A stretch of 63,462 nt of DNA, filler included, from Nemertoderma westbladi (lineage: Eukaryota > Animalia > Xenacoelomorpha): NCBI GenBank assembly GCA_032718475.1. It is 4 parts of 4 records of this genome, joined end to end, with 100 filler letters (N's around TTAATTAATTAA, not from the genome) between each part and the next. Parts side by side here need not be neighbours in the genome. Positions count along the whole stretch, not along the records: positions 1 to 28,448 come from JAUCBJ010005293.1; 3 more parts are not named here. One strand, given 5' to 3'. A program made the position numbers and the translations under genes. Every line of letters begins with the position of its first letter. The stretch's first letter is position 1. Below the pieces are notes generated by a model. That model was not told where the DNA came from, ran no database searches, and saw nothing but the letters and a program-made list of their open reading frames with translations. Shown here in pieces: positions 816 to 61,499 of the stretch.

Positions 816-1255
816 CTGTAAAAAATAATACTTACGCGATGATATATTAGATTATATCAGATATGTCAATATATCATTGTTAATTATTAATATATTATTA
901 ACATGTAATAATATATAAATTAACGTCTAAAGTTGCCAATGGCGAAACGAATAATTGTAAATATCCAGTATCTTTGTCCACGATGATATTTGCCAAATTC
1001 CATAATACCTCTTATTGAAAACATTGGCTATGAAAAATAAGTCTCAAATCAATAATAAATATACAACATACAATAAACACATATAAAAAAATAAAAATAT
1101 TTTTAATTAATAAATTCATGTGTTATACCATGAGACGAATAATGGTAAAAGATGCCTTTCAGCTAGGGTAGATTGAAAGGAAGACAACATCCTCATCCAG
1201 GGAAGTCCCCAATACTCCCGGGTAAATCAATGCAACAAATTAGTGTGAATAAATG

Positions 1256-2441
1256 CGTAAAAGCTTTTGCATATATAACAAGCCATTTTTCTCCGCAATA
1301 TACCGTGTAGGTGTTTTAGCGGACATAACAAGCCATTTTTACTCGCTATGTCTGCATGTGTGCTTTAGCGGACATAACAAGCCATTTTTTCCGCAATGCG
1401 CATAATACTCTAAAGACTGGAACTCAGATGACGACATCTGTCAGCTGATTTACTGCCGACATGGAACCTTTTCTTTGTTCTTTGCTCAGCCAATCAGAGC
1501 GATTTTCATTTTATGTGTGCTTTAGCCCTACGTAAACCGTGCTAGGCATGTCAGTGTTAGTGTTGTATCTTTTCTAAGCCCAGAACACCGGCTTAGGATT
1601 CTTCTGTGCTTCTGTAGAAGTTTCAGACTTTGGCCAGAACATTAGATGGCTTGGATTATCGAAACGTAAAACTATTACCAACGCAAACCAACGCAACAAA
1701 CAACTTACTAATTACTGAATCACTGACGAAACACATCAACACTGCAACACTGCACTACTGCATTCACCGCATTATTTTACTGTCTGTTATTAATTGTTAT
1801 ATATGTTGATGGATATATTGTTATATTTGGAGAATACCAATAAAGAATCATAAAACCCCAATCTTCTTGATTACTGAAGGTGAGAGGACAGGTTACCGGT
1901 AGCAATTGCGACTTACATTATAGTGGTTTTTGTGTGAATTAAATGCTATTTCATAATCCCTACATGTGTCAGTTGCCATCCTCCTTATATATGATCAAAT
2001 TCAGTGACTGTCGGCAGATCAGTGTGAAGTAGTGTGAAGTCGTGTGAGGTAGTGTGATTGGTAATAAAGCATCTCCTAAAGAATGTGCCTTTTACGAAAC
2101 TCAGTAGCCATCTAGTTGTGATTAGTATAAGTCATAACTCTGTTTTTATACTTAAAGCGCCACGTCCTAAAGGAACTGTTAATATTTCCCCGAAAGTAAA
2201 TATATTGTCAGAGATTATAGTAACGATCAATCGAAAACTACAGTAGGTCTACAATGCAATAAAAAATCAAAGAATCCGAATCCAGTCTCCCTTAACAGTG
2301 GGTGAATGGTCGCGCATAGACTGGCTTCGGCTAATGTTATTTCAGTGTAATCAATAATTGTTATTGGCTAAAGTCGATTTATAAATTAGAAGACAACTAA
2401 AATTGGCAGGTTAAACTGCTAAAGGTCTAAAAGCGCGAACA
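1256..2441 (+). repeat. 5' LTR (1186 bp)
   Basis: CGTAAAAGC...GCGCGAACA; the first base is C where the 3' LTR has T. About 26 substitutions and 1 indel versus the 3' LTR by hand count (~98% identical). Three ~50-bp subrepeats at the start; CCAAT box near 1490. Confidence 0.95.
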
Positions 2442-2453
2442 GTAATAGTTTTA
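2442..2453 (+). promoter_or_regulatory. Non-tRNA primer-binding position, complementary to LTR 1667-1678
   Basis: GTAATAGTTTTA directly follows the LTR end and is the exact reverse complement of TAAAACTATTAC (1667-1678). No TGG at this position. Confidence 0.65.
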
Positions 2454-4397
2454 TTTCTTTATTGCACCGTAGGCAATAAAGTCGAGGTACTGGTCGAACG
2501 GTAAGCTGTAGGCCTAACTGCCCAACTGCCCGAACCGGTACTTACAAGTACAACAGTATTATTCGATTTTGATAATTATATACCGGTAGGTCTTGATATT
2601 TAATCAGGGACGGCCGCCCTGGTTTTTTATTGGGATTTTACTTATTTCTGTCAGTTTTATTTATCTGTAAGTGTAATATTGAGCAGAAGGCGTGTAAGCC
2701 TGCTCAGATTGTATAAATAATTTGTAGGCTGGATTGTTGTCTAGCTGTTGTTAAGTTTGAAGCGATTGCAGTGTGTGTAGAGTGTAGGTCCGATTAAGTA
2801 CTAGTTAGGAAAGTGGGGGCATCCAGTGTTGTAAGGTGAATCCCACCCAAAAGAATAAGTCGTACTACTCGGTTAGAAAGCATACTAACTAACCATTTCG
2901 GAGTCTGCATATACTGTAGTTTATTTAGGCTTGACAGTAGTCTGCCAGCATTTGGTCTGTATTTTGTTTGTATAGTCTGCACGGGTAGCGTAATATTTAT
3001 TATTCAGAGTTTATGCGAGTATTCGCAACCTACATACCCCCAAGTTTATTCCTACAGTAATTGTGCTTGTTATACATACCGTTATAGTTAAATTAACACC
3101 GGTACTACATCAGGGCTGCTTGGCGTAGGTAAAGACTGGTGATTTTATGCTCTAGTCACTCCAGCAGATACCGTGGTTCTTTTAGCTGTTCAAGTATATT
3201 TAACCGCTGGTTATTTGTTGTATAAGTATTTGTACCTAATCTAGGGTTTAGAGTACAGTACTTTTTGAAGGTAATTTAGTTTGTAGGCAGTATATTTGTG
3301 TTGTAAAGTGGTTAATAGGCACGTTAGCTCTGGTTGGCTGCGGTAATTAACTTCTAGGTAAGGACACTCCGGGTACATAACGTAGTATGTATAGTGCTGT
3401 AGAGCAAAAAGACTATAAGTCGTCAGACGGTGGTATTTTCTTATCTGGACAACACAGTATATTTGCTACTGCTTAATTATTTTCAAATACCGTAGTATCC
3501 TGTCCGTTTGTAATAACCAGAAATTCTAACTCCCTGTTAGACTGGTTTGTAGAATTCCTGTAAAATTACCCTAAAATTTGTACGTGTAATTTGTTATTGT
3601 TTATTTAGAGATTGTAATCTCACCCTGTATGTAAGTAATTAGTAGTAATAAGTAACTTAGTAAAGTAGAATTATTTGTTTTAGTGTCCAACAGGTAGCAC
3701 TCCACTGAGAGCGTTTAGCTTCTGTGTAGTGACCCCCTTAACCAGAAATAATAACATTTGTTTCAAATATTGACAAAACCCTTGTACGGGTACATATATA
3801 TTATAAATCAACTCAAACCGATTTATAAAATAGTAGGCCTGTTAAACATCAATTAGGTCTTAATATCAGTTGGGCTACTGCTTGATAACAGTAATAAAGT
3901 AAAGGAAAGTAACCTTTAAATTCAGAAATTCAGTTATTATAAAATAATTGACATTACTGATATTTAAGGTAGGCTTATTATATATATTTATATAAATTTA
4001 GGCTGAAATTATATACCGGTATTCTGTGACTAAACCTAGTTTGTAACAATACTTATATATACTATAAGTGTATACCGGTATTTTAATATATTATATTATA
4101 TTATTATTAGAATTTACCACAACTTTAACAAATTAATGTTCTAGTTATATCACAAACGAATAATAGCGAATAATTTCAGCGTAATAGCATAATAGCAGCA
4201 GCGGGGTAAATGATACATATTTCTAGCGGTACCTAATATATTACACTTCATATTAGAACAAATTATATCTACTGTATATTTCAATTTACTAATTGCAGTT
4301 AGGGAAGCCCATTAATAGTATAGGTAGTCCAAATCCAATTCACGTTTTATACGGTTAAATTTGTATTTATTAAATGTTAATTTTTCTCACTTATACC

Positions 4398-7300
4398 TTA
4401 TACCAACCCCAGCTGCCCAAAGCTTCCCAATCGAGCCTCCCGAGTTCTGGATGCCATAATGATGTACATTCCGAGTTTGATGGACCAGGTTGCATTGCTG
4501 CTGCGAGTCCTGCGGAATAAGTCCTGGAATTTAAAAAGAGATGGATGAAGAGCGAAATAATGACCAAGGTATTTCTCACGGATTTCTGAATACGCCGTAC
4601 AGACTAGAAGAAAATGATATTCCGACTCAACCATGTCACGATTTCCACATAAACGGCATACTCTGTCATTCCTTGGAATCTCGTACCATCTCCCAGACTC
4701 AATGGCAAGATGGTGCGATGAACAACGTAGTTGCGAAATTGATCTTCGCAATAAGACATGACCCTTCAGACAGTCCAAATAGGGCTCACAGGCAAAGGAG
4801 TCTTTACAATAAAGAGTACCTTTTGGGGATGTCTCAACATCTGTCCACCATTCTTGTATGAAAATATCCTGCAACCTCGACCTGAACTTGTTGACGAAGG
4901 AGGTTTCAGATTCCACTAACTGGGCATTCCACACTCCAGAAAATCCTGTTGCTTTCAACAGGTCCCTCACTCTAGAAACCCAATTTGTTGCTCTCCTTAC
5001 TAGGACATCGTCCAGAAGAAATAAATAGGATGCCTTGGTTAGACAATATCGTGGAAGTTTCAAAATTTTCAGCCAATATTTGATTATCCTAATCTTGCGT
5101 TCAATGTCTTGAGGAAAAATGCCAGTTTCACCATATACTGCGAAATTAGGAGATGATCTTTTGACACCTAGAAAATATTTAATGAATCGTAGACTTACTC
5201 GTTCAATATCCATGGCTTGGTGAAAACCCCACACCTCACACCCATACATCATTATGGGTTTTACAAGAGTGTTAAAAAGATTTCTTGCCATTCCGAAACT
5301 TATGTTAGGGAAAAAAAATGCAATATAATGCATCAGCATGAATAGCGCTTTCCTCGCACGATCACCCAATGCAGACTGCGCTAATGCGAATTTGCCAGTA
5401 GAAGACAACTCAATTCCCAGATATGTATAGTGATTTACAACCTCAAGCTCCTCCCCTTTGTATAACCACCTGTCTTGACTGGAGACCATACCACCCTTCC
5501 TAAAAACGATTACCTTCGACTTAGAAAGATTTACTCTGAGGGAACAATAATCACAATAATGTTCTAGACATGTCAAAGCGCCCTGCAGATCCTGAGGTGT
5601 GTTGGCCAACAGAACAATGTCATCGGCATATAAAAGTAAATAGAGTTTCACGTATCCCATGACAACACCCGCCACCTGACCACTCTCTAATTCACTCTCG
5701 ACATCATTGAGAAAAAGTGAAAACAGTAAAGGCGACAGGCATTCACCTTGAATCACGCCCAGCAAGCATGTAAACTCATTTGATATCCCATCCTTCCGAA
5801 CACAACACTTCACATTTGAGTATATGCTTTTAATTAACTGGAACAAGCGACCACCAAATCCCAGCGAGATCAATTTAATCCACAGGGCATTTCTGTCCAC
5901 CGAATCAAATGCTTTTTTAAAGTCTATGAAACTACAATAAAGCCGAGATTTCTTCCCATCATTCAAAACGTAGTGTTCGATAAGCGAATTTAATATAAAG
6001 ATCTGATCTATTGTGGAATAACCTGGGCGGTATCCTGCCTGGGACTCTATAATAGTCCTGAAACACCCAGCCCACCAAGTGAGTCGGCTGTTTATTAGCG
6101 AAGTTAGCAACTTCCCAAGAATACTTAACAATGTTATACCTCTGAAAATTCCCGGATCCAATCTGCAACCTTTATTCTTGTACAGTGGAACAATAAGCCC
6201 GAGTGCCCATCCTTCTGGGAAATATCCTGTGTATAGAATAGCATTAAACAAGCATGTTATTATCGATAACAACTGTGTAGAGCCAAGTATAAGATACTCA
6301 CTTAATATATTGTCTACTCCGGGCGACTTACCCCTCTTCAAGTTCGCCCACACTCTAGAGACCTCCTCTTCTTCGAAGGGGTCCCCTAATAAAAGCTCAA
6401 ATGTCACCCTACTTTCAATTAAATCAATATTTGTCCGAGGACACACCCCCATATCCTCAAAACCTGATACCTTGCCTGACAATTCTCGGAAGTGCGTTTC
6501 AAACTCGGAAAGCGAAGGTTCTTGCTCACCCACATGCCTGCTTGTCCTACATACACTCTTTAACTTCTTCCAGAACTTCTTTATATTACCCTTATAAAAT
6601 GAAGTTAAACATTCAGACTGATTGCTTAGATTCTCATACCTAGCCTTCCTCAAGACTCTCTTATAAGCCGTACGCCTGGATTGTAAAACTAACAAGTTCT
6701 CATTGCTATGCACACTTTGCCAATCTCTAAGTGCCCTGGAAAATACAGTCTTTTCCTCTTTACACGCATCATTGAACCACACTGCCCCACCATTACCTGG
6801 ATGGACAGTCTTCGTTCGTCTACCGCAAGTACCTGATAAATCACTGGATATTGTTGAAAAGAATGAGTTCAATCTGTTTACTGCCTCGTCTATGTTACTG
6901 GCACTCAAATCATCCCCAGTAATACAATCTATTATGGCATTTAACTCATTAGTTGCAAAATCTGAATTTAGCTGTGCCATATATTTATTTGTATAGTATT
7001 CTTTCCATTTAGAAACACAGGGTGTCGATGACCCAGGAGTTTGTGCTTCTTGGTCCGATCTCCCACCAACTGGGATGTTTTAATCAGGCTCATTATTTTT
7101 TTTAATATTAAATGAGACTGAGGTAGTAACGTGATGGGAAAAAATATTTGGTTTTCCTATACTAAATTTCCCACAAGAGGCTAGCATTTGCACCGACCCT
7201 ATAACATAATCAATAGTTGACTTCCCAACTGTATTATTCCCTGCATTACAAAAATACGTATAATCTCCAATATGCTTGTCTTCGCCAACCCTTCCGATGA

Positions 7301-8051
7301 AAATACGCAGTCCGGTGGTCTTACACAGTTCTATAAGCCTCCGGCCATGCGGGTTAACTGCACCTGCCTTAGAAAGTCTATGTACCTGAATATTAAACGT
7401 ATTAAATTCATCAATATCAAATACGTAATCATCAGGCAAAAGCTCATTTAAACCATTATTGGCACGTTCATCTGAAACTATGTAATCCGGTAAAGTAGCA
7501 GTTTTTGCATTAAAGTCACCCGCCAGAAGCACCTGCACATTACTAAACTGGGCTATGTCATTCACTAAATTGTCAAACATGCCAATAGTATTATTATCAT
7601 GGGCCGTTGAACCCGCTGGTGGAATGTATACACAGCCTAACATTACATCAATATTTGTTCTAAAAATATCTCTAGAAATTTTTAACCATAAAATATCATC
7701 GACCACCACATTATTATCAACTTTAAAAATACCATAACTCAATTCATTACGAAAATAAACAGTGACCCCGCCGCTGTAACGTTTTGCCCTATTGTGTTTA
7801 TATTTCCTAAATGTACTGAACTGACTGTATCCAAACGCACCCAAATCAATATCAACTGTACTTAAGGGTCCCAACCAAGTTTCGAGACAAATAAAAATAT
7901 CGTAATTACAAACTAATTGTATAAAGTCTGGATTTACAATGGCAGATGCTATACCTTCAACGTTCAAACACCCAATGTTAAATTGTTTATTGGTTAGTTT
8001 TGTCTGTGTACTTTCCGGTGGAACCGACGTACTTACACTATTGTCTGGCAA
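4398..8051 (-). pseudogene. LINE ORF2: APE endonuclease, reverse transcriptase and C-terminal Cys/His motif; one in-frame stop at 7080-7082
   Basis: APE motifs (NVEG, CLETW, GDFNA, TIDY). RT motifs (IDFKKAFD, QGECLSP, YADD, YLG). C-terminal CRLC...ESEYHFLLVC. The 99 nt between the two ORFs are open and in frame. Confidence 0.9.
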
Positions 8052-8242
8052 ACCTCCCCTTAAATTTATCCCGCCCCATTGCCTATTTCCTGTCGAGGGA
8101 CTCCCGGGTTGGACTGCGTCGTAACATTCTCGTTACTAACTGTAGTATCCTTTGTCCAACCAGCATGTCCGTCACCAGCGGCTCCTAACATATTACCTCC
8201 ATAAAGGTCCGTCATTGTTTCGGTACCTGCCACGCCTCTTCT

Positions 8243-10121
8243 TCATGGCAAACTAAGGCTACGTCCCCGACGAGTGACTCTGTCACTATCAGGGATACCA
8301 GACTTTTTCGCTTTCCTTGGGTAACTTTTCCTCTTTGCATTAACATGAGCGAAGGCAGCAACTTCGACTACATTGTTACTAGTGTCAGCGACACCATCAC
8401 CCGCCCATTTTTCCATGTTAGCTGCATGTCCTAATGAGACACCCTTGCTCTCTTCGTCGGGGGCTTCCAGACTCTCACCCGCAACCTCTGGGTGATTTAC
8501 AGCCCCTGTAGAATTCGCACCTGGTTCACCCCGCGGTTGGAAGGAGGTTCTGACCGGACCGGAAGTGACATTACGGGCTGGTGCAGATGGGTACGCACCT
8601 AGTTCACCCAGCGGTTGGAAGGAGGTTCTGACTGGACCGGAAGTGACATTACGAACTGGTGCAGAGGTATACACACCTGGTTCACCCCGCGGTTGGAATG
8701 AGGTTCTGACCGGACCGGAAGTGACATCATGGGCTGGTGCAGACGGGTACGCACCTGGTTCACCCCGCGGTTGGAAGGAGGTTCTGACCGAACCGGAAGT
8801 GACATTACGGGCTGGTGCAGACGGGTACGCACCTGGTTCACCCCGCGGTTGGAAGGAGGTTCTGACCGGACCGGAAGTGACATTACGGGCTGGTGCAGAC
8901 GGGTACGCACCTGGTTCACCCAGCTGTTGGAAGGAGGTTCTGACCGGACCGGAAGTGACATTACGGGCTGGTGCAGACGGGTACGCACTTGGTTCACCCC
9001 GCGGTTGGAAGGAGGTTCTGACCAGACCGGAAGTGACATTATGGGCTGGTGCAGACGGGTACGCACCTGGTTCACCCCGCGGTTGGAAGGGAAATCTAAC
9101 CGGACCAGAAATGACATTTTGTCTGTTCCAGTTATTGCCACCCGCTACCGGTAAGGAATCGTATTTCTCCTGCAGAATAGCATCTAAGGAAATATCGGGT
9201 CTATTGTGCACTTCCCACCCATTTATATATACATTATTTATTCGCAAGCTGCTCCTGTTCATTCTGGTAATCATACCTCGTTGCTGGGCCTCCCTGGACA
9301 AGCGAAATAAAGTTCCCCGGTGCTGGTGCATTTTTTGTGGAAAGTCGTCGAGCAGGCGATGCTCAGAACCAGCTAGCCTGCCTTTCTGATCAAGAACCCG
9401 GAATTTATCCTTCATGCTCAAAAATTCAATTTTAAGAGGGCGAGTCTTACCTGGTACTAAGCGTCCTTGCCTAGAGACTCTCTCCATTGCAAAGTAACTA
9501 TCAATACCGAGTTTAGTAGCAATAAACTCGCGCGCTACTTCTTCCGTGTCTTCTTTCTGTCGTTCGCATAGATTTATGATGATAAGGTTACTCTGGTTAC
9601 TCTGATAAGGTTACTCTGGTTACTCTCTTATCTGGCTCTTCACCTCACCGATACAATTTCTTATTTCCGGTATCAGTAAAATGCTGTCAAGGTGTTGCCT
9701 GGTTAGAACGACCTCATCAACCCCAGAATGCTCACCGGTACCCGAACGTCCACTACTACTGATCCGTGGGCGTTTGTCCCGGCGGTGTTGCACGGTTTCG
9801 AACCCGGAAGCGGAAAGGTTGTTGGAACTTCCGTTAGCAGAATTAAACGCGCTGTAAGACTGAGCCATAGCTTCGTCGGAAACATCGCATTCCGTATAGG
9901 ATGGATCCGCAGCCGATTCCGATACCGGTACTTCTACAATGCCTGCTGACTTCCCCCAGGCCTACTGAGGGAAGCCTGCTCCCGGAATCCTCGTGTGATG
10001 TGCCGGTAACACTGGTGGCTACCAACATTGCGTCGGCCACCTCCACCTCAATATCGTTCATCAACGCTGGTGTACCATTTCCATAGTCACTATAAGTTAA
10101 CGAGTTATCTACATTCGCCAT
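8243..10121 (-). pseudogene. LINE ORF1 (frameshifted) with RRM/CTD-like core and a repetitive Pro/Gly-rich tail
   Basis: ORF pieces 10121-9843, 9868-9620 and 9487-8243; typical ORF1 motifs NLIIINL...RPLKIEF...DDFP; 23-bp tandem duplication at about 9581-9627. Confidence 0.7.
8516..9117. repeat. 78-bp coding tandem repeat, about 7.7 copies (SFQPRGEPGAYPSAPARNVTSGPVRT)
   Basis: Directly visible 78-nt period; explains the overlapping spurious ORFs here. Confidence 0.95.
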
Positions 10122-10429: not shown

Positions 10430-13400
10430 ATGGCAGATACATCTTAGAACATGTGTAGAACATCTTAGACCGAAGTCCAAGTCCCCTCCTACTGTAAGAA
10501 AGGTCATCTCTTCAGTAGTGGTATCAGATCCTAGGCTAGTCAAGCACCATAGGTCTATTATAGGCACGCGGGCTCAAGTCAAGCGGGACCAAGAGGCAGC
10601 TGTTAAACAACAGCACCAGCAACACCCGAGCTGAGAACTTATTTCTCAGCGGTCAGATAGCTCCAGTAGTACAGATACTGTAGAGTTGACACCAGAGATC
10701 GGAGCAAAGATGGCAGAAGCAGTTTATTCTGATCCGCTTCTCATTCTTCCTGAGGCTATACTCACGAGAGTATTGATCGCTGTGGAAGAACATCAAATCG
10801 ATTGGGCGAGAAGTAAGCGATCGACCAAAGATAGTTATGCTGGATACCCGATGGAAGAACTGAGGTCTATTGTCGAGGCGCAATGGAACTTCCCCGGACC
10901 CAGACTCCCATTTAACTTATCGGAAGCTACCTGGGAGGACTTATACCGGATGGGAGTAGTCAAGGATACTAGAGATCCCGCTGTGTGGAAGAGGTCGGCA
11001 GCAGGATATGTCCAGGGATTCTTCAGCTCTTTGGAGCGATTAGAGGAACACCTGTTTTAACAACCTCACGGACCTCAAGAGCAGGGAGAGCTGCTTTATC
11101 AAGTTCGCGAACGAATTCTACGGATCAGACTAATCCTTTCAGCCTTTGAGGAAGCCTCGAAGAGAAGCCAAGACACGTCGTTGCAAGTCACCGTAAAGAA
11201 TTGGTTCCAACGAGTGAGTCTTAAAGTCCAAGGAACGACACAATGGAAAATTCAGCTAGCTGAGCGCTCGACCCAAGGAGAATCAACAGATGCTGCCTTT
11301 TCTCAAGTGGAAAGCGAAGTTACGTCAGAAAAACCTCAGAAGAAGGACACTATTGACATCTATCTGTCAGACTATCAACGATTTATAGGTACAAAGAGTT
11401 AAGGAGACGGCTAGCTGGACTTCACCCTAAGAGTGAGGGAGCCAAATTTGTGTTGGACTCGTTGGTTGCGGAAATATTAGCCGTTGAGCAGGCTAAATTT
11501 GATGAAAGCATCCGTATCGCTAGGGAACAGGAAGAACAGTTAAAGAAAAAACGTATAGAAGACAGAAAGGCAGCAGCAGCGGCAGCTGCAGAAGTTGAAA
11601 GAAAGGCGGCAGCGGCAGCGGCAGCGGCAGCGGCAGTGGCAGAGGCTGAAAGAAAAGCGACAGCTGCAGCAGTAGAAGCGGAAAGAAAAGTGGCAGCGGC
11701 AATGGCAGCAGCAGAGGCAGAAGCGGAAAGAAAAGTAGCAGCGGCAGAAGCGGTAAGAAAAGCGGCAGAGGCAGTGGCAGAAGCAGAACGGAGGGCATCT
11801 GAAGAGACAACCCAACAAGAGTTGGAAAATCTTCAAGAGAAGCAAGACAACTTCAATAAACAGAGAACAGCTACTCATATGCAGCTGCTAAAGTCGATCT
11901 ACTCCCAAGAGACAGGGATTTACATCCTCTGACGAGGGCGATACAACAGATCCTGAAGGCGGAGGAAATCGATCTCGTTCCAGCGGACGTAGAAGAGCGC
12001 CACACCATCAGAAATTGCCTAATCTGCCCCCAGCTGTGAGAAGGCAACTGGCTAGTGTAGATTTAAGTAATCCTGAGCCTACAGACCAAATTATTAGAAT
12101 AGAAAGACTCCCTACTATAGTGGATGAGCCTGAAATAATTAGGCCTGTTCTCGAAGCCACCCCCTCTGTCATAGAGACCCCTGTACTTACAGAACCTAAC
12201 TCTAAATTCCCTTTGCACAGTACTAAACTACCTGTGCCCAGTAGGACAGTTCCTGAGTCAATGCCAGTCCTGGACGCCAAGCGAGACATTAACGATCTAT
12301 TGCCCGTCGTCCCTCGTCTACCCGCTACTATGTTGGCGGCTCCCGCTTCGGCGGTAGAGTGGGTGGATGAGGGACGGCGGGAGATGGGTCTTTTGCTCGG
12401 GCAGCTGAGAGAACACTGTGTGTGTTCCTCCCAGCAGGTCCGGGAGTTGGACGGGACTGTTCAGCAGTTAAAGGGAACAGTAAGAGAGGGGAGGTTAGAA
12501 TTGCAAGAAGTGCAGCAGAGTATCGCGTTAGAACGCGATAAGGTAGTAAATATACAAAAGGGTATACAATAACCCCCTGTAACAATGTGTCAACCTGTTA
12601 GGTCTGAAGTATTTCAAGCGCAAAGTGTGGAGCCTACACGCATCTATACTGCTAGTGAAGTAGAGACTCCTATAGTAAACCCTATTAAGGATAATTATAA
12701 ACCTGTTGATAATGATATTCCATATAGACCTGATCATAATCCGAGAAATTTATATACCGATAATTCGATATTAAATAATACGATGGCCCAATAAAGTTTT
12801 ACGCGTCAAATGGCCAGAACAGAAGCCCGTCAAGCGGTAAAGACAAGAGATCGTCAAGTTCAAACGAGATGAGAGGAAATGGTTACCTTTTAATGAATAT
12901 TACAAAGATAACATACAGAACTCTGTACTATCCAACGGAGAGAAACTTAGATTCCTCATTGAGAGCTTGGAAGGACCTCCCAAGTTAATGGCGTTAAAGT
13001 TTATTGGACATCCAGATGGATTAAGACAAGTTTGGGATACACTAAACATCAGGTATGGTAATAGGACTAACATAGCTAGGTATTTGTATGTGAAATTAGT
13101 AGCGCCCTGAAAGTTTCTTAGCAGCGGGATTATAGAATTTTCCGATGAGATCCAGAGATCTGTAGACAGTTAGATTGGCTAGGTAAGTCTCATGAATATC
13201 AGAGTTCTATGGTTGTTGGAGCCATAGCATCTACTTTACCGAAGGGTGGAGTAGGTACGCGTTGGGATAAGAGAGTTCTCTATATGATGGACCAGCAACA
13301 AAGAGACCCTACCATGACTGATCTCATGTCATTTTTAAATGGAGAGGTAAGATTACAGCTCCTAAAGCAGTCCTGAGAGAAGACACTGGAAAATAAAGTA

Positions 13401-13900
13401 AGTGAAAAACCCGTTTCTAGGAGAAAGGTAACACTAGTATGTTATACAGACGACGGCGAAAGCCAAACCTCCCAAGAGGAGAACAGCGGGAAAGACACCA
13501 AAAGATCTTACTATGTCAACAAAACAATTAAAGACGTAAGTAAATTTAAGTCTCGAACCTGTGACAGGAGAGAACAGGTAACAAAAACTCCTCCTACGTC
13601 TCCTAAGAGAATTCATGGAAGAAAGCCCGAGGAAAGAACAAGTGTGCAAAACACTACCCAAGTTAAAGTAAGTATCATCAAACCCAAATGTGTATTGTGC
13701 GACGGGCCCCATCGTCTAAGTGGATGTGATGAATTCTTAAAGAAATCCCTAAAGGATAGACGTGATGTCATGTGGGATAAGCGGTTGTGTTATAATTGTC
13801 TCAGACAAGGACACCAACAGCGAACCTGTTACTCCGACGCGAGGTGTGCTAAGTGCGGCGCAAAACATCATATCTTGCTGCATGCGGAATTCGAAAAAAC
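10430..13900 (+). pseudogene. gag: BEL/Pao gag region with long N-terminal extension (multiple stops and frameshifts)
   Basis: DUF1759-like segment at ~12860-13100 (KWLPFNEYY...LSNGEKLRFLIESLEG...LNIRYGN). Triple zinc knuckle CVLCDGPHRLSGC / CYNCLRQGHQQRTC / CAKCGAKHHILLH. Upstream Ala/Glu/Lys coiled-coil repeat at 11450-11932. The 5' boundary is approximate. Confidence 0.8.
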
Positions 13901-16900
13901 CAGCAAGAGTCAGGTAAGTGAGCCCGAACTACATGTCCAATTCAGTGATGTGAACGACACTGACAACAGCTCTGAGATGGAAGGATTTTACACAGACGAA
14001 TTCTCCGATGAAAACGAATCCTGTTATATGATAAACACCGCGGTGTATCGAGCGCTTATGTATGAAACTGACACCGATAATGAAGTGCAGTGGACTATTC
14101 CGGACAGACAACCATCTTGGAAAGTGCCAACTTCCAAAGTCGGAATCCGGGAATTCCCGGTAGTTCAGCTGAAAGTCCATGGGCCAGCCAAGAGTTTTAT
14201 AGTAAACGCCCTCCTAGACTCCGGCAGTACAGGAACATTCATCGACAAAGAACTAGCCGAAGACATCTTTGCTGGACAACCCAAGTTCCGAACTAAGTTG
14301 AACCTTTCAGGAATTATGCAGGTTTGGAAATCTACAGTAGCTACAGACTACTATGTAGGAGCGTTGTCCACTCCCCAGGACAAACTAGGAGAACACAGCA
14401 TAAGGTCAGTAAAAATGGTGGCGATAAAGAACTTTGCTACCAGCCAAGTAGAACCTTACAACTGGGATGAAGACGATTTTACCCAGCAACATAATATCCC
14501 TAGATTCAACACTGACTACCCAGGGGTACAAATATTGATCGGCCAAAATGCGCATGAGGCGCTGGAGACATTAGAAAAACGGCCTGCTTGACCGCAACCA
14601 TTGCAAACATATGCGGGAAGAACAAGAGTAGGTTGGTACTTCACTGGACCTTCCCGTAGAACACTCATGGAAAGATTACCCACCGACCATATACATCAGG
14701 TGAGTGAATGGGAAGAAGAAATCAGTGAGGGAGAGACCACACCTGAGGGAACACCATACTCCTCAGATAACGATGATATTTCCCAATTATTTGACGAGGA
14801 AAATACAAACGACCTCCTCAACGAGAGTGAAGTTTGGAGAAACCAAATGCAACTGTGCCATCTTGTCAACCATGGCGGACAATTCAACTATAACGACGAG
14901 CTAAATGCGGTGATAGATCGATACAACGATAAAATTCGCGATGAACATGCCGTACGATTCTTTACTCAAGAAGCTGTAGAGCCTAATTCCTACGATAAGG
15001 CTCTATCTGTCAAAGAGGAAAGAGCCAAGCAGATCCAGAAAACGACTACACGTTTTCTTAAGGACCAAGGTAGGTATGAGTTTGGTCTTCCGTTCCGACG
15101 GCGAGAACCTAATTTCATTAATAACAGACCCTTGGCGGAGAAGAGAATCGCGCAACTACATCGGCGTCTTACGGCTAATGCTTCAGCTAAAGAGATGTAT
15201 AAGACCCAGCTGAAGAAATTCATAGATAAGGGATACACGGAGCGAGTACCGGAAGAAACACCCGTAACTGAGAGAACGTATTATCTAACACATCATTACG
15301 TTTCCAAACCCGGTAAACCCAATGAAGTCTGGGTAGTATTCGACGGCTCCGCCCTTTACATGGGCCAATCCCTTAATTCCGAGTTGTTGCCGGGACCCAA
15401 CTTACTCCAATCCTTGTTGGGAATACTCTTAAGATTACGGCAATATTCTATCGCTTTCGACTCGGATATAGAAGGTATGTTCTTACAAGTTAAGGCGCTG
15501 GATAGGGATCGAGACAGCCTACGATTTCTGTGGTGGCCTGAAGGAGACCTCGACCAAAAACCAGTGGAGTACTGGATGACCATCCAGGCTTTCGGGATCA
15601 TCTCAAGCCCCTCGAACGCTTGCTCAGTAGTGCGTACTACTGCGGATGACAACCGGGACGCCTTCTCAAAAGCGGTTATCGACAACATCAAATGGGATAT
15701 CTACATGGACGACAATTTAAAGTCCCTCCCATCGGTGGAAGAAGCCATTGATGTTGCCAAGGGAACGGTAGAGTGCTTGAAACGCGGTGGATTTCATCTA
15801 ACCAAATTCACAAGTAACTCCCGTGAGTTTCTGGAATCGATCCCGGTGGAAGATCGAGGAGTTAAAAATCTGGACCTTATCAAGGACGATCTTCCGGAAA
15901 CCAAGACGCTTGGTTTGAAATGGGACACGGAGAGAGATATCCTGTTTTTTCAGCTAAAACCTCGAGATAATCCAGTTCGAACCAACCGGATTTGTCTAAG
16001 TATCCTGAGCACTTATTTCGATCCATTGGGATTTATTAGCCCAGTTATATTAGTTGCTCGGAGCTTAGTGCAACAAATGTGGCTTGAAAAGCACTCATGG
16101 GACGATCCACTTAAGGAAGAACTACTAAAGAATTGGATGAAATGGGAAGATTATCTACCTTCCATCGAGAACTTTATTATTTCCCGTTCATATTTTGGTC
16201 ACGTTCTCCCCACATATTCCTATCAACTCCATGTGTTTGGAGACGCCAGCGATATGGGAATAGGTATAGTAGCCTACCTGAGGGTTGAAACTCCGGATGG
16301 AATCAAAGTTGCCTTGGTTACCTCTAAGGCCTTGATAAACAACAAACTACGAGTTCCTCGAGCGGAGTTAAAGGCGGCTCTATACGCTACAGCCATCGGC
16401 CGGAATGTAACAGAACAGATCGACTATCCACTGGAGTAAACTGTCTATTGGACTGATGCTTTACTCATTTTGGAGTATATAACCAATGAAGTCTGTCAGT
16501 TCAGCATCTTTGTTACCAACAGAGTAGCCATTATACTTAGTCGCACTAATGTAGATCAATGGAGACATTGCCCTGGGACGATTAATAGCCTCCAGAGGAG
16601 CAACTCCTCAAGAACTGATAGATACTCCGGACTGGTTAGGTGGACCCGACTTCCTAAGTAAAGAAGGAAATGAATGGCCTCCTCATCTCACCACAGCTGA
16701 GATTAGACAAGCCAAGGGAGCGGAGAAAGTCAAACCTAAAACCCGGACGAGTAAATCAAAGTTATTCAAACCAGTGATAGATCTATCTGTACTACACACT
16801 TCTGGAGACGACGCTGTGGATCTAAACTCACCCGCCACAAATAAATCTGTTGTGGAAATCAGAGAGAGAGACTGGAAATCTGGAACACCAGACGTCTCGC

Positions 16901-18568
16901 AGGGACTCTCACCTCTCCTGCAGAGAGCGATAAATCACTAAGGCTCCTGGAATCGGCTCTGTAAGGCCGTTGTGTATTTGAAGCGATGCATCCACCATCA
17001 TTACTCCAGGACGAAGATCGCTAGTGATACCGCTCCACTGACATCTGCGCAGGTCCATGTTATTAAAGATCTTCCCAAATATAAAGTACCAGATAGGTTT
17101 CTGAAGGAGAAGATCAGTTACCAGGAGCATGAAGAAACCAATAAGCAGATACTGAGACTCCTGCATTGCTATGAAGATTCCGATAAGTATTTCCTGTTGT
17201 TGAGAAATCCACAAGGGCTTAAGGGATCGTTTCTCTAGCACAATGATAGATGGGTTAATACTTGTTGGAGGGAGACTAACTAATGCTCCATTGTCCTTTG
17301 ACACTAAATTCCCCATACTCATTAGAAATCTTGAAATGCAAATCAAGATGATTGTAGATGTTCACAGTAGGCTTTACCATGCTGGTAGAGAACGAGTTCT
17401 TAGCGAAATTCGAACTTGCTATTATTTTCATAAACCCCGTAGAGCTCTGAACAGGGTTCTTAGGAACTGTATACCCTGTGGGAAAGTATTTAGTAGGCCT
17501 TTAACACAGCGAGAGGCACAATTACCTAGGGAACGAGTAAGCTTCTATGAACCACCCTTTACTAATACCGGTGTGGATTTATTTGGCCCTATTGAAGTAT
17601 ATCGTGCTAGGACTATAATCAAGCGATGGTGTGTCATCTTTGTCTGTATGACTTGTAGAGCGATCCATCTAGATATGGTGAACGATGTATCTACCAACAG
17701 CTTCATACTGAGTTTACGCCGACAGATCGCTCGCTTTGGAACTAGCAATACGATGAGATCTGATAAGGGAACGAACTTCATTGGTGCCAATAATGAGATC
17801 AAAGCTTACGTTAGAGATTGGAACCAAAGACAGGTGGACGATCAGCTAAGGGTAACAGCATCTAGCTGGACCTTCAACGCCGCCGACGCCCCTTGGTGGG
17901 GAGGAAGTTGGGAGAGATTGATAAGGAGCGTAAAGACCGCATTTCACTTTATAGTGCCTTGCCGCACGTATCTCACCGACGAACTTTTACGGACGTTAAT
18001 GGAGGAAATCGCCGCCTATCTTAACGAGAGACCGCTTATGCCAGTCTCATCGAGTCCCGACTCCCTAGAAGCGCTAACACCCGCGCATTTCCTACTGAAG
18101 AAACCTGTAGCCATGCTCCCACGATCGGAAGTTACGGACGGAGACAAATACTGCTGACAAACTTGGCAGCTTATGCAGTTATTATCCCGTTGTTTCGCTG
18201 ACCATTTCGAAAAATATTATCTGCCTACGCTACAACTTCGAACCAAATGGTTTGCGCAGCAGGAAAACTTCAGCGCCGGAGACATGGTACTTATTGTGGA
18301 CTCAGATCTTCCACGTAAGCGATGGCAGACAGGTCGTATCATCGAGACTCATATATCCGATGATGGTTTAGTGCGATCGGTAGAACTCGTCGTCATGCGA
18401 CGTAACTTTAAGAAACCTGCATTCGAAACGCAACAACTCAATCGCCCAGTTGGTCGTTTATGTTTACTGGAAAGAGACAGAGAACTATCCGGAAACTATG
18501 GAAGGCAAGATACTCTTCCCACGACCACCTCCCTAATCCAACAAACATCTAGGGACTCCCCAACGTAA
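13901..18568 (+). pseudogene. pol: BEL/Pao pol: aspartic protease, RT, RNase H, integrase and C-terminal DUF5641-like region
   Basis: ALLDSGS; VVFDGS, DIEGMFLQV, YMDD, LGLKWD; LHVFGDAS, PRAELKAA; HHCC, GVDLFGP, SDKGTNF, WWGGSWERL; broken by several stops and frameshifts. Confidence 0.95.
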
Positions 18569-20305: not shown

Positions 20306-21859
20306 ATGACTGAGTTGATAGAAGATGATCTTGGTATCAGGGAACGATATACCCTACCATTGCAAGCGTTTGTTGATAGCTTAATAAGCAGCGACGCTAG
20401 TCAACCCACTATGGAGGACGATGGTCGTTATATCGAAACGCCAATGTCCAAGGAACAACTCACGTGTTAATTGGACTATAGAAAATTCACCGCTCGCTAT
20501 ACGCATCGTAATGGTACGTATATGGACTTCTTAACTACTGGTCATCCTATCGATTTACACGATACGGATGATATAGACACCGAAAGGGAAATGGTTCTAT
20601 TTAAATATCATACCCAGCAGAGTCGGAACGATAAACCAAGGATCGAACACGATAATTCTATCCAAAACCGACTCGAAAGAGAAGACGTTGAAGAGCCGGG
20701 TAAACGCAGTGACTTCAACGAATATCTGGAATTCTTGAGAGAAACATATCTCAATATTGCAGGTCAACAAAATCTAGAAACTCGATATCCTCAAGGTATA
20801 CATCATGACCCTATGATAGAACTCAAACGGCTCTATTTTACTATGATGTATCTTACCGCCGATCGACCGCTACCTGTTGTCCCGGATAGCTTCGAACAGA
20901 TGGAGGAATATTGTAAAACTGGAGAATGATCACCAGCGTTTCCCCTACAGGACGTGCGTCTTTGGTATTATTGCGATGAATGTCCTAGACCCAACCAGCA
21001 AACGGAAAGACATAAACATCCGCGGAGACGTTGCGCTAAACACAGTTTTTCTCGCTATACTTATGGGAGTTTTGAGAGAAACTTGTTCGACGTATCACCT
21101 ACACTCGCTCGACTCAAACGATCCTTAAATAAACCGATAATCAGAGTTCCGGAATACTCGATCAGACCTCCTCATTCCCTAATGAGACCTCAGACTCTTG
21201 ATCCTAATAGTATGATGGATCCTCCCGAACTGTACTCACTGTTTAAAGATCTAGTGTTACCCGAACAATTAGTCGGTGGCACTCTGGTTGGGGGCTCCCT
21301 AGATATTCGCCCATCTTACCAAGCCGGATTGGGACGCGGACATCTAATATCGCCGTTTAACCCGTATAACCGTCCCGGTTTAACCCTGATACAACCTGTC
21401 ATCAAGGTGGAGGAGAGCGTTGTACGAAACGCGTTAGACGCTATTCGGCAAAAGATCGGAAAATGAACTTACGATTGTTTAGAGAAACGTAAATTGCAGC
21501 AGCAAGTTCAAGCAGTAAAAGAATTGGCTTTACCTCAGTTCGATCGGGAAATCCAGAATCGCGAAGAAGATATCGAACTTAGACGACCCTATTCTCTGCG
21601 AGAGTTTGCGGAGGAAAATCAGCTCGAGGAGAAGCATATCGAAATGGACGAGACACCGACCGTAACCCTAAACCTTCCGATGCAATTGTATTGCACCCTT
21701 CACCCAGGAGTTGTGGCCCTCCTAGTAAAGTGGCTCGCCCCAAAGAGAAAAGGACTCTTGCTAGCCTCAAAAAACTTCGTAAACGCCATTCATGTAAGAA
21801 GGACTAGTAGTTTAGAGTATTCTTATATTTTAGAAACTGTGATTTTGTATATTTTATAG
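20306..21859 (+). pseudogene. Extra orphan ORF of the BEL element (~517 codons, 3 in-frame stops)
   Basis: ATG at 20306. ORFs 20471-20929, 20954-21466 and 21494-21859 are all in the same frame, separated by single stops. The frame ends 26 nt before the 3' LTR. Confidence 0.7.
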
Positions 21860-21885
21860 ACTCAAATCCCATTTAATGGGAGCAG

Positions 21886-23070
21886 TGTAAAAGCTTTTGC
21901 GGATATAACAAGCCATTTTTCTCCGCAATATACCGTGTAGGTGTTTTAGCGGACATAACAAGCCATTTTTACCCGCTATGTCTGCATGTGTGCTTTAGTG
22001 GACATAACAAGCCATTTTTGCCGCAATGCGCATAATACTCTAAAGACTGGGACTCAGATGACGACATCTATCAGCTGATTTACTGCCGACGTGGAACCTT
22101 TTCTTTGTTCTTTGCTCAGCCAATCAGAGCGATTTTCATTTTATGTGTGCTTTAGCCCTACGTAAACCGTGCTAGGCATGTCAGTGTTAGTGTTGTATCT
22201 TTTCTAAGCCCAGAACACCGGCTTAGGATTCTTCTGTGCTTCTGTAGAAGTTTCAGACTTTGGCCAGAACATTAGATGGCTTGGATTATCGAAACGTAAA
22301 ACTATTACCAACGCAAACCAATGCAACAAACAACTGACCAATTACTGAATCACTGACGCAACATATCAACACTGCAACACTGCACTACTGCAATCACCGC
22401 ATTATTTTACTGTCTGTTATTAATTGTTATATATGTAGATGGATATATTGTTATATTTGGAGAATACCGATAAAGAATCATAAAACCCCAATCTTCTTGA
22501 TTACTGAAGGTGAGAGGACAGGTTACTGGTAGCAATTGCGACTTACATTATAGTGGTTTTTGTGTGAATTAAATGCTATTTCATAATCCCTACATGTGTC
22601 AGTTGCTATCCTCCTTATATATGATCAAATTCAGTGACTGTCGGCAGATCAGTGTGAAGTAGTGTGAAGTCGTGTGAGGTAGTGTGATTGGTAATAAAGC
22701 ATCTCCTAAAGAATGCGCCTTTTACGAAACTCAGTAGCCATCTAGTTGTGATTAGTATAAGTCATAACTCTGTTTTTATACTTAAAGCGCCACGTCGTAA
22801 AGGAACTGTTAATATTTCCCCGAAAGTAAATATATTGTCAGAGATTATAGTAACGATCAATCGAATACTACAGTAGGTCTACAACGCAATAAAAAATCAA
22901 AGCATCCGAATCCAGTCTCCCTTAACAGTGGGTGAATGGTCGCGCAAGACTGGCTTCGGCTAATGTTATTTCAGTGTAATCAATAAATGTTATTGGCTAA
23001 AGTCGATTTATAAATTAGAAGACAACTAAAATTGGCAGGTTATACTGCTAAAGGTCTAAAAGCGCGAACA
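21886..23070 (+). repeat. 3' LTR (1185 bp)
   Basis: TG...CA termini; preceded by a short purine tract GGGAGCAG; followed by TSD AAATG. Confidence 0.95.
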
Positions 23071-23114
23071 AAATGTAACACTTGCACAACACTTGTCTCC
23101 ACCACCCCTTCAAG

Positions 23115-39699: not shown

Positions 39700-40018
39700 T
39701 ATATACTGTATACCGGTCATGTAGGATTAAAGCAATCGCACTTGTATTTATAATATTCCTAATAAAAATATAGGCCTACTCCAAGGGTACACAGATCTCT
39801 ACCGGTAAGCAAACTTTCTGTGCTTTCTATCTGAATGTGTAAATCAGCAATCCTACTGGACAGCCTAGAAGTGGCTTATTTATTGTACCGGTGGTACTGC
39901 TGTACTCTGACAGCAATACGTCAATCTGTCAATTAAGATTGCTTCGTACCAACCGTACCGGATACCGCCTTGCCGTCCTTCAATCTTACACGAAGACCAT
40001 TGTAGATGGTAGAGTCCA

Positions 40019-40837
40019 ATGATCCCAGGAGTAACTTTATCCTACAGGATTTTCCCTGGCAGGAATCCGGGATTGCTTATGTTACACGGCGTTTTCGGTG
40101 CGAAACAAAATTTCGCCGGAGTCGCAAACAAAATAAACCGAAAAACCGGAATGCTGGTAGGTACGTGCGATAGCCGTAACCACGGGGCGTCCCCTTGGAC
40201 ACCGGAGATGGGTGTCGTGGCGATGCGAACAGATACGTTGAAACTAATGGAGGAGTTAAACTTCCATGGGGTGTTACTGGGCCATAGCATGGGGGGAAAA
40301 GTAGCAATGAGTACCGCGTTGTCAAACCCCGAGAGTATTACTAAATTAATCGTAGTAGATGCGGCGCCTTGTGTGATAAATAACTCTGCAAGAGAAGTGA
40401 TCCGGGGATACATGAATAAGATGCAAGAATTCACAGTGGATAACAGTAAATCTCTCTCTAGCAATAGGAATATGGCCGCAGATTTTCTTATAAACACCGT
40501 TACGAATCCAAATATTCGAAACTTTATTTTGACAAATTTGATAAAAAGGGCTGATGGTACGGTGGGGTGGCGGTGTAATTTAGAAGCGGTTTCAAGGAAT
40601 TGGGATCGGTTGACTGACCTAGATGTTTCTACCGACTGCGTACCGCGCCGGGGACCCACTCTCTTTATTTTGGGCGCCGAGTCCGACTCTACCGGTTCCT
40701 CTAAGGAAGTTCGCGACGACATCTATCGTTTATTCCCCTCCGCCACTATTCACATGGTCCCGGGTGCCGGCCATTTCGTTCACGCCGATAATCCATCGGA
40801 GTTTGTAGACATTGTCTCTGATTTTATTACAGATTAA
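40019..40837 (+). CDS. ABHD11: Alpha/beta hydrolase ABHD11-like, single exon as seen
   Basis: MLHGVFG, DSRNHGASP, GHSMGGK nucleophile motif, AGHFVHADNP; continuous 272-aa ORF; true N-terminus uncertain. Confidence 0.85.
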   Translation: MIPGVTLSYRIFPGRNPGLLMLHGVFGAKQNFAGVANKINRKTGMLVGTCDSRNHGASPWTPEMGVVAMRTDTLKLMEELNFHGVLLGHSMGGKVAMSTALSNPESITKLIVVDAAPCVINNSAREVIRGYMNKMQEFTVDNSKSLSSNRNMAADFLINTVTNPNIRNFILTNLIKRADGTVGWRCNLEAVSRNWDRLTDLDVSTDCVPRRGPTLFILGAESDSTGSSKEVRDDIYRLFPSATIHMVPGAGHFVHADNPSEFVDIVSDFITD

Positions 40838-48931: not shown

Positions 48932-49206
48932 ACTGCCTAATGCAGTACCGGTAATGCTGCATGCTGTCCAGCCAGACAGCTGTAATAATGTACTTACCGT
49001 ACCTGGTACCATATTCTGATATTCCTACTCAGCATGGCGTACCGGTAACTAATATTTATGTTTTTGATTTATTTGTTAAGATTGTTTGTTAACTTATTTA
49101 TTGTGGCGATATAAATTGTTTATTCGTTCATGCGATTTTATTTTATGACTCTTTGTCATTGTCAGTCTGTAACTGCGGATTATTGATACGGTACCGGTCC
49201 GGTAGT

Positions 49207-49722
49207 ATGACGAGCAGTTCCACCGGAGCCTCCAACCCTAATCCTGATGGTTCAGAAGCATCTGATTCTCCTTACGAATGTAACATATGCCTCGATCAAG
49301 CAACAGACCCTGTTGTTAGTATGTGCGGCCATCTATTCTGCTGGCCATGCATACATCAATGGCTAGAGACTCGCCCCCACAAACAGGAATGTCCCGTATG
49401 CAAAGCCGGTATCAGCCGCGACAAGGTGGTCCCTATTTACGGGAAAAACAGTAGCCAGCAGGACCCCAGAACGAAAACCCCGCCACGACCAGCTGGTCAG
49501 CGAACTGAGGCTCAAAACAATATGGGGTTCTTTAACTTTGGCGACGGGTTTCATATGAGTTTCGGAATTGGTGCATTTCCTTTCGGATTGTTTTTCAGTG
49601 GGATGAACGACTTTGGGGGTGGGGGGGTCAGGCACGGTGGTGCTGATCAAGGGGAAGCTTTTATGAGTAAAGTGTTTCTTTGGGTTGCGCTTCTATTTCT
49701 GTTTTGGTTATTAATGGCTTAA
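49207..49722 (+). CDS. RNF185: ER-membrane RING E3 ubiquitin ligase of the RNF5/RNF185 family, single exon
   Basis: YECNICLD...[14 protein letters not shown]...CPVCK...[32 protein letters not shown] and C-terminal TM helix; ATG at 49207. Confidence 0.92.
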
Positions 49723-50954: not shown

Positions 50955-53900
50955 AATTAATTACCGATACTGCTACTCAGTGTAGCGTGATATATATATA
51001 ATATATTAGAATACCGGTATGCTTATAGTATATATAACTATATAAGTATTATTACAGACTAGGTTTATCACAGAATACCGGTATAATTTTAGCACAAATA
51101 TATATAAATATATAATAGGCCTATCGGGAATACCGGTATACAGCTTACAGTTTTGTAATATATATAATTATAATTCTGGACTAGAATTAATTATAAAGTA
51201 CCGGTATAATTTCAGCCTAAATTTATAGAAATAAAGATAATAGGCCTATCGTAAATACCGGTATATCAATTATTTTAAATAATTGAATTTCTGAATTTTA
51301 GGGTTACTTGGTTACTTTACTTACTTTATTACCGTTTTTTGAGCAGTAATCCAACTGATATTGAGACCTAATGGTTGTATGGTAGGCCTACTATTTCTAA
51401 ATCGTTAGATTTGATTTATAATGTATATATACCCGTTTTAATGGGTTTTGTCAATGTTTGAAATAAATGTTATTATTTCTGGGGAGTAATCACTACACAA
51501 AGCGGTGCGCTTTCAGTGAAGTGTTACTTATAGGACACTAAAACAAATAATTCTAATTTACCTAAGTTACTTAATACTACAAATTACGTACAATTCGGGT
51601 GAGATTACAATCTCTAAATAAACACAAAAATTTACAAAAAACACAAAATACTAATTTTTAGGGTAATTTTACAAGAAGTCTACAAACCAGCCTAACAAAG
51701 GGTTAGAAATCTGGTTATTACAACTGACAGGGTACTGCGGTATTTGAAAATAATGAGTAGTAGTAAATACACCGCGTTGTCCAGATAGGAAAATACCACC
51801 GCCTGACGGCCTATAGCCGTATCGCTATAGGTACTACGTTATGTATCACGGAGTGTCCCTACCTAGAAGTTAATAGAGCTAATCGAACGTGCCTATCAAC
51901 CACTTTACAACACAAATGTAATGCCTACACTAATTACTTTCGGAAAGCACTGTACACTAAACCCTAAATTAGGTACGAGTACTTGTACAACATATAATCA
52001 GTAGTTAAATATACTTGAACAGCTAAAAGAACCACGGCATCTGCTGGAGTGACCGATGCACAAAATCACCAGTCTTTACCTACGCCAAGCAGCCCGTGTA
52101 GTACCGGGGTTAATTTAACTATAGCGGTATGTATAACAAACACAATTACTGTAGGAACAAACTTGGGGAATGAATGTTGCGAATAATCGCATAAACTCTG
52201 AATAATAAATATTACGCTACGCGTACAAACTACTCAAACAAAATGCAGACCGAACACTGACAGACTACTATCAAGCCTAAACAAACTACGGTATATGCAG
52301 ACTCCGAAATAATTAGGTAGTATGCGTTCTAACCCAGTAGTACGACTTATTCTTTAGTTGGGGGTTTACCTTACAGCATTCGCTGCCCCTACTTCCTAAC
52401 TGTTCTTTATCGGACAAGTGATCTACACACGCTGCAATCCGTTCAGACCTAATAACAGCCAGACAACTATCCAGCCTACAAATTATCTAAATAAATATTA
52501 TACGCTACCCGTACAGACTTACACAAACAAAGTACAGACTCAACGATGGCAGACTACTCTCAAGCCTAAATAAACTACAGGACATGCAGACTCCGAAATA
52601 ATTAGGTAGTATGCGTTCTAACCCAGTAGTACGACTTATTCTTTAGTTGGGGGTTTACCTTACAGCATTCGCTGCCCCTACTTCCTAACCGTTCTTTATC
52701 GGACAGGTGATCTACACACACTGCAATCCGTTCAGACTTAACAACAATCAGACAACAGCTCAGCCTACAAATTGTCTGTACAATCTGATCAGGCTTACAC
52801 GCCTTCTGTTCAATACTGGCCTACAAACAAATAAAACTTGACAGAAATAAGTAAAATCTCAATAAAAACCAGGCGTCCCCGATTAATTATTAAGACCTAC
52901 CGGCATATATCAATCAAATCGAATAATACTGCTGTACTTATACGGGAAGTACCGGTTAGGACAGTTAGGCCTACCGACCTACTGAAGTACCGGTTCTGGC
53001 AGTTGGACCTACGGGCCTACGGCAGTACCGGTTCTGGCAGTTGGGCCTACTGACCTACAGATGGACCTTTTCAGGTTTACCGGTTGACCGGTACTTTCAA
53101 CTTTATTGCTTACTGCAATAAAGAAGCTATATCCGTTATTGTTCTTACCAGAACAATATTAAACTGTATTTAATGCCTACACTGCAATACAGACTATATA
53201 TCCGTTATTGTTCGCGCTTTCAGACCTTTGGCAGTTTAACCCGCCAAATTAGGATGTCTTCTAGATAATAAATCACCTTTAGTCTATGACAAGTATTTAA
53301 TTCACTACACTAGTCGAAACCAATCTGTGCGCGATCATTCACCCGCTGGATATACCCGGGAGATTGGGTTCGACGGCTTAATCTTATTGCTATGTAAGCC
53401 TAATGTATTATTCGACTGACAGTATTATATAATCTCTGACAATATTATTCACCTTCGGGAAATATTACCAGTTCCTTTAGGACGTGGCGCTCTATCTATA
53501 TAAAAAGAGTTATGACTTAAACTACTCACAACGATATGGCTTAGTTATAATTCACATATATGGCGCATTCTTTAGGAAATGCTTCGTTATCAGGTTCACT
53601 CATACACAATGCTGCACAATACTGCACACTGATCTGCCGATCTTCACTGATTTTAGTTATATATAAAAGGAACACGGACCGAATCATGTAGGGTCTATCA
53701 AATAACATTAGATTCACTTCAAACCACTTTAACATAAGTCACAATTGTTATATGTAACCCTTCTCTCTTACCTTCGGTATATCAAGAATATTGGGTTTCG
53801 GGGTTATTTATCGTTATTCCAAATATAATAATTCATCAACCATATTATGAAGAACTGACAGCAAATAGCAGTATAACAATATAAAGTATGCACAGGTTGT

Positions 53901-59298: not shown

Positions 59299-59398
59299 NN
59301 NNNNNNNNNNNNNNNNNNNNNNNNNNNNNNNNNNNNNNNNNNTTAATTAATTAANNNNNNNNNNNNNNNNNNNNNNNNNNNNNNNNNNNNNNNNNNNN
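59299..59398. other. Assembly gap
   Basis: N-run with TTAATTAATTAA linker. Confidence 0.98.
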
Positions 59399-61495: not shown

Positions 61496-61499
61496 AACC

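Follow-up and report, generated by a model that had tools for sequence, protein, structure and literature searches.

Two BEL/Pao elements lie in the 63,462-nt stretch of Nemertoderma westbladi DNA analysed here (the window), and we propose that they prime minus-strand DNA synthesis with a piece of their own LTR RNA, a reading to which we give a probability of roughly 0.8. Self-priming is favoured because dozens of different PBS sequences do not suit one tRNA, and because no DNA-level artefact can account for a match that appears only when two segments are joined across a splice junction. With somewhat less assurance, we think it likely that a large BEL/Pao branch relies predominantly on self-priming and that the ancestral form there would use the host spliceosome: removal of an LTR intron would join an 11-nt primer and tie replication to splicing, and repeated intron loss would give ready-made primers such as those in the window. 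The new part is this primer joined by splicing, which is predicted in relatives, the window elements appearing to be intron-less members of a larger pattern.

Structure and PBS complementarity of the window elements

The features of the two elements are collected in Table 1. The LTRs of element 1 are 97.8% identical (1256-2441 vs 21886-23070) and of the TG..CA type, with a TSD and a purine tract, base 1 of the 5' LTR being C, not T; the LTR end at 2441 is backed by loose ends of family contigs in 4/4 public runs. The Pol domains are found in the order PF05380, PF17921, PF18701, which agrees with the PR-RT-RH-IN order of BEL/Pao elements (Belpaoviridae), and PF05380 together with PF18701 bears out the class proposed in an earlier, sequence-only reading of the window. 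Stops and frameshifts interrupt gag-pol, in which we take two further motifs to be zinc-knuckle-like and protease-like. Among the matches listed, Pol homologs mostly carry PF05380, and those of 34-44% identity include named proteins of corals, molluscs, echinoderms, hemichordates and fish. No chromodomain family was among the Pfam matches of element 1, its Pol being Pao-type and not that of a Ty3/gypsy chromovirus. The placement of element 1 is uncertain, since its branch on a quick RT tree is long (1.88). A Pfam search with the additional 3' reading frame matched no family. A 78-nt tandem repeat (8438-9196) lies within the ORF1-like frame of the LINE in the leader. Neither this LINE nor the broken pol figured in the sequence-only reading.

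The 3' half of the element 2 LTR is about 74% identical to that of element 1, and its leader follows the element 1 leader until it meets an assembly N gap near 50,950, because of which element 2 has no 3' LTR here; its class assignment is by LTR and leader homology to element 1 only. The LTR block at 2106-2225, which is 84% identical in the two elements, has the highest family depth and is without a match in Rfam.

Table 1. Positions of the features of elements 1 and 2 in the window
Feature	Positions	Strand	Remarks
TSD AAATG, 5' copy	1251-1255	+	partner 23071-23075
Element 1, whole	1256-23070	+	two LTRs, flanking TSD
Element 1 5' LTR	1256-2441	+	1186 bp; starts CG, 3' copy starts TG
CCAAT box	1490-1494	+	kept in element 2 (54117); putative function
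Initiator-like TCAGTG	1551-1556	+	kept in element 2 (54062); putative start near 1553
Second helix, upstream arm	1661-1664	+	partner 2454-2457
Element 1 candidate self-primer	1667-1678	+	12 nt, contiguous; 3' end would pair with 2442
Splice-donor-like AG/GTGAG downstream of primer	1880-1885	+	also in element 2 (53771); putative
Element 1 PBS without TGG	2442-2453	+	directly 3' of LTR
Hairpin immediately behind PBS	2458-2480	+	element 2 has one too
LINE inside element 1 leader	4398-9610	-	ORF1-like frame, endonuclease, RT
Broken gag-pol of element 1	10635-18568	+	PF05380 (Pao RT/RNase H region), PF17921 (integrase zinc finger), PF18701
Additional 3' reading frame	20471-21859	+	about 460 codons, two in-frame stops
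Purine-rich tract ahead of 3' LTR	21878-21885	+	
Element 1 3' LTR	21886-23070	+	primer sequence unchanged here
Second (duplicated) PBS copy in element 2 leader	53128-53139	-	missed by the sequence-only reading
Element 2 PBS without TGG	53196-53208	-	
Element 2 5' LTR	53209-54406	-	LTR end fixed by homology with element 1
Element 2 candidate self-primer	53953-53965	-	13 nt

Neither LTR is followed by TGG, as the sequence-only reading had stated, and the 12-nt and 13-nt pairings that it described are both present: GTAATAGTTTTA at 2442-2453 is the exact reverse complement of 1667-1678, and in element 2 the sequence at 53965-53953 is the exact reverse complement of 53208-53196. The compensatory change that it proposed at an equivalent position is also real. 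The two primer-like sites occupy homologous alignment columns and differ at 5/12 positions, all of which are compensated in the PBS, and when the PBS is swapped between the elements the LTR match is only 6-7 nt each way. Markov-shuffled LTRs, with 7 offsets allowed, reached the observed match length in 13/5000 cases for element 1 and 4/5000 for element 2, and the 12-mer at 2442 is the only one in 2442-4100 with its complement in the LTR. Both window primers are contiguous, that is, not split by a GT-AG intron. The complementarity has the form used to recognise Tf1-type priming, a PBS that matches its own LTR over at least 10 nt at 0-5 nt from the LTR end, and the duplex is placed and oriented to prime minus-strand synthesis.

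ARAGORN reported zero tRNAs across the window, and Rfam gave no match over 1200-4300, so that there is no known ribozyme there. The public runs show a high-copy family with an LTR ending at 2441. Compared with the flanking bins, those of the primer and the PBS have lower depth, which fits free variation of both within the host family; solo and 3' LTRs account for part of the drop after 2441. For the host family, the covariation described here is that between the window's two copies.

Self-complementarity and predicted LTR introns in relatives

Protein-guided scans gave 99 loci, comprising 19 from genome contigs and the best 80 of at least 459 confirmed in a metagenome scan. The first 19 (L001-L019) are BEL/Pao loci inside bacterial genome assemblies from metagenomes and are probably host-animal contamination. 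No relative was found among viral contigs, and an LTR-end pattern search of three sequence collections returned nothing.

In 21 rows, representing 17 families with the window's two included, both LTR ends were set independently, by homology, and for these the sequence 0-6 nt past the LTR was compared with the element's own LTR and the longest match taken, whether uninterrupted or spanning a GT-AG intron. Matches of 10-15 nt are present in 16/21 rows (13/17 families), 5 of them contiguous and 11 only across a predicted GT-AG junction, whereas cross-family swaps gave a match of at least 10 nt in 0/412 cases; the covariation on which the sequence-only reading relied therefore extends to the relatives. 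The five misses are three TGG-type elements, L008, in which 10/11 positions are paired with one mismatch, and L065, whose LTR end is misplaced and for which a 12-nt match turns up in other scans. Statistics are limited to these fixed-end rows because blind long-flank scans gave false positives of 10-16 nt. Left out of the 21 rows were L080 and L082 (internal duplications, no LTR pair), L067 and L097 (members of L072's family), and a nested unclassified LTR pair in L010 with a self-match of only 4 nt.

TGG-type sites occur in five relatives (L039, L081, L082, L091 and L096), and L013 and L014, which have a GT-type site and no LTR match in the sequence examined, are possible true misses. The L039 site (90-115) is of the TGG type though the element, whose LTR is incomplete, groups with contiguous self-primer elements; a return to tRNA priming is possible in this case. 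L044/L045 and L056 are tandem BEL/Pao elements that apparently have one LTR in common.

When any GT and any AG were permitted as intron ends, spliced matches of at least 11 nt were found in 11/21 rows vs 5/412 swaps, and three control dinucleotide pairs gave 0-2/21 in the same test, for which L035 replaced L065 in the row set. Chance was also considered as a source of the complementarity, and is rejected in view of the shuffles, the swaps and these dinucleotide controls. The donors of the predicted introns are mostly GTAAG or GTGAG, and the acceptors are pyrimidine-rich. Between the sisters L003 and L004 the three exon-1 bases have changed together with the PBS positions that pair with them, which is compensation across the junction.

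Contiguous forms recur beside spliced ones on the quick RT tree (96 rows, with L015, L017, L018 and L019 absent), in the pairs L043 and L042 (97) and L011 and L034 (88) and with L093 inside a spliced group (99). Side-by-side comparison of intron-less with intron-bearing forms (L093/L056, L011/L034, L043/L042) shows that the junction sequence corresponds, as expected from precise intron loss. It is likely that intron-less forms, both window elements among them, arose by reverse transcription of spliced RNA.

For the donor-like site at 1880, candidate acceptors are situated near 2213 and near 2472, and joining to the latter would strip the PBS from the mRNA. In a public run guessed to be RNA (the runs being contigs), no joint at 1880 was among those listed.

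Duplex shape and possible sources of the primer

The shape of the duplex was examined in a wider set of 42 rows selected for a match (32 spliced and 10 contiguous), in some of which the LTR ends are inferred. These rows come from 41 loci and the window's two elements; the remainder of the 99 loci are 8 more family duplicates, 5 TGG-type elements and 45 without a call, mostly for too little LTR sequence. In a tally of 41 selected rows positions 1-10 are paired by selection, and pairing continues to position 11 in 36 rows and to position 12 in 11, and includes the position before the PBS in 3. The PBS starts with GT in 35 and AT in 6 of the 41, a start that the blind scan demanded; among the fixed-end matches, 15/16 begin with GT or AT or one base before. 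The duplex core is therefore about 11 bp, and the primer 3' end is nearly always AC or AT. A second, upstream helix of at least 3 bp can be drawn in 35/42 rows vs 35% of swaps, and one of at least 4 bp in 20/42 vs 9%. It is 3-5 bp long, lies most often past a 3-4-nt bulge on the primer strand (3 nt being commonest), and is drawable in both window elements.

We propose that an LTR transcript, probably starting near 1553, would anneal to the PBS, whether that of its own molecule through a fold-back or that of another RNA in the particle. Cleavage immediately 3' of 1678, for which the element's RNase H is the probable agent by analogy with Tf1, would then provide a new 3'-OH for extension into U5. 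If the steps known from Tf1 and from the standard retroelement cycle apply, the PBS would be rewritten in every cycle when the primer is copied into the plus strand, and this would account for pairing that is perfect although the sequences change fast. Most relatives would have no complete primer until the LTR intron had been removed, a split that the sequence-only reading could not show.

Two variants of self-priming differ in where the primer RNA begins and on which molecule it resides. The first, which we regard as possible though short of an even chance, is that a short capped, spliced and polyadenylated LTR transcript, from a 5', 3' or solo LTR, acts in trans as a home-made tRNA substitute while the genomic RNA remains unspliced. 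This would account for intron retention in both LTRs, although cap-dependent splicing of the 5' copy alone should likewise retain the intron. In 24/41 rows an AATAAA or ATTAAA is found no more than 50 nt from the primer end, overlapping the primer in three of them, whereas the window elements lack a conserved poly(A) signal near the primer, the AATAAA at 1839 being GATAAA in nearly all of the family depth. Folding also disfavours a loop in cis: in the fold predicted for the 928-nt region the primer/PBS helix does not form, with pair probabilities of 0.012 and 0.0, so that chaperoning or pairing in trans would be needed. Of the self-priming over a loop of about 770 nt envisaged in the sequence-only reading, the pairing stands, whereas the cis loop is not favoured by folding (probability about 0.01 or less). 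In L032/L077, L034 and L092 the predicted primer and the poly(A) signal share bases.

The second variant, which we consider unlikely, is priming exactly as in Tf1, with transcription starting at or within about 10 nt of 1667 and the primer being the capped RNA 5' end, about 12-20 nt long with the second helix included. The sharp 11-nt edge of the pairing is what a 5' end would give, core, bulge and second helix together amount to about 18 nt, a TATA lies 30 nt ahead of the primer in L035, and five relatives have initiator-like motifs 15-29 nt upstream of it. However, CCAAT and TCAGTG are conserved about 115 nt upstream in both window elements, with no such motif near 1667; TATA-initiator pairs are found about 90 nt upstream of the primer in L003, L004 and L093; and spliced families would require first exons of about 10-15 nt. 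Across 33 relatives TATA and initiator motifs are mostly absent or mixed. The second helix can form only if the RNA extends 7 nt or more upstream of the 11-mer, so the primer probably comprises more than the first 11 nt. The start at 1667 predicted in the sequence-only reading is therefore doubtful, the upstream helix speaking against it and the conserved CCAAT and TCAGTG pointing to about 1553; transcription from there would make the capped fragment about 126 nt long.

Outside self-priming, the duplex might be a regulatory or packaging structure with another primer in use, and long-range helices do occur, as is generally known, in retroelement 5' leaders. This is improbable, as the duplex begins 0-5 nt past the LTR end in an orientation that fits extension into U5, shows AC or AT at its 3' end with hardly an exception (the PBS starts with GT or AT in 41/41 rows, a start required by the blind scan), and is absent from the fixed-end elements with TGG. 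A host tRNA fragment or small RNA might instead serve as primer and the LTR match be accidental or a by-product. This would agree with the tRNA priming given by ICTV (PMC8742986) and with half-tRNA priming known in copia lineages (available text of PMC6317226), but is very improbable given 38 distinct 11-mers among the 41 selected rows, each matched by its own LTR only, and 0/412 swaps; with 16/21 fixed-end rows matching, the comparison strongly supports the tRNA-independent self-priming claimed at the outset.

Relation to known systems, and other features of the window

According to the ICTV profile, the Belpaoviridae PBS is 18 nt and is served by tRNA-Arg or tRNA-Gly (PMC8742986), and the BEL/Pao element Achilles has a tRNA-Tyr PBS in the available text of PMC4580426. 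The window elements share with tRNA-primed Belpaoviridae the domain content and order, the TG..CA LTRs, the TSD and the purine tract, but unlike them lack TGG, as do most readable relatives. Because the protein evidence for BEL/Pao membership is clear, we read the missing 18-nt tRNA PBS as a gap in the family description.

In Tf1 the PBS is paired with 11 nt of the element's own RNA, which must be cut to give the 3'-OH (available text of PMC7175516 and PMC4600332); the primer is the first 11 nt, and two further duplexes use the LTR downstream of it (bioRxiv 10.1101/2022.12.06.519325, in the part available). As far as these sources go, the elements described here resemble Tf1/Tf2/Tj1 and the wider Tf1/sushi group of Ty3/gypsy chromoviruses in having no tRNA PBS and an own-RNA pairing of about 11 nt, but they belong to another superfamily and have an extra helix upstream of the primer, a loop of about 770 nt and, in most relatives, an intron that splits the primer. 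Local duplexes for a Tf1-like three-duplex pretzel can be drawn, inconsistently between the window's two elements and with no control. The window feature would work like Tf1 self-priming but is not a member of the Tf1 group. The available text of PMC6317226 describes self-priming in Tf1/sushi and predicts it in plant Tcn1 (gypsy) and TAR/Houba/Osr-1 (copia) from the same criterion, at least 10 bp beginning 0-5 bp past the LTR; these are plant lineages of other superfamilies, and no splice-built primer is mentioned there.

Self-priming in BEL/Pao elements is not mentioned in the available text of PMC6934838, PMC3601003 and PMC8220671, and a term search of the available text of the BEL/Pao surveys PMC3118150, PMC554778 and PMC6238403 found mention of neither PBS nor tRNA. 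We found no report of BEL/Pao self-priming or of a splice-built primer in searches of the openly accessible literature, so that prior mention is possible. If the proposal is true, the ICTV profile is wrong for much of an animal reverse-transcribing family, and all three LTR superfamilies contain elements with known or predicted self-priming, a point relevant to whether tRNA priming is the ancestral mode. Splicing of the primer would connect RNA processing with the initiation of reverse transcription in a new way, and self-priming would explain empty tRNA-based PBS searches on BEL/Pao elements of this group. Cer7 of C. elegans, a BEL-type element, has reportedly been proposed to encode its own primer RNA, which is said to be a separate small-RNA gene in the 3' region and not part of the LTR.

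Elsewhere in the window there are four host-like genes, each one open frame without introns, at 40013-40837, 49093-49722, 56662-57843 and 59347-60537, which we take to be ABHD11-, RNF5-, DHDH- and NAXD-like, in that order. Several long inverted-repeat elements lie between 24 and 42 kb, and a 31-nt tandem satellite occupies 61362-63462.
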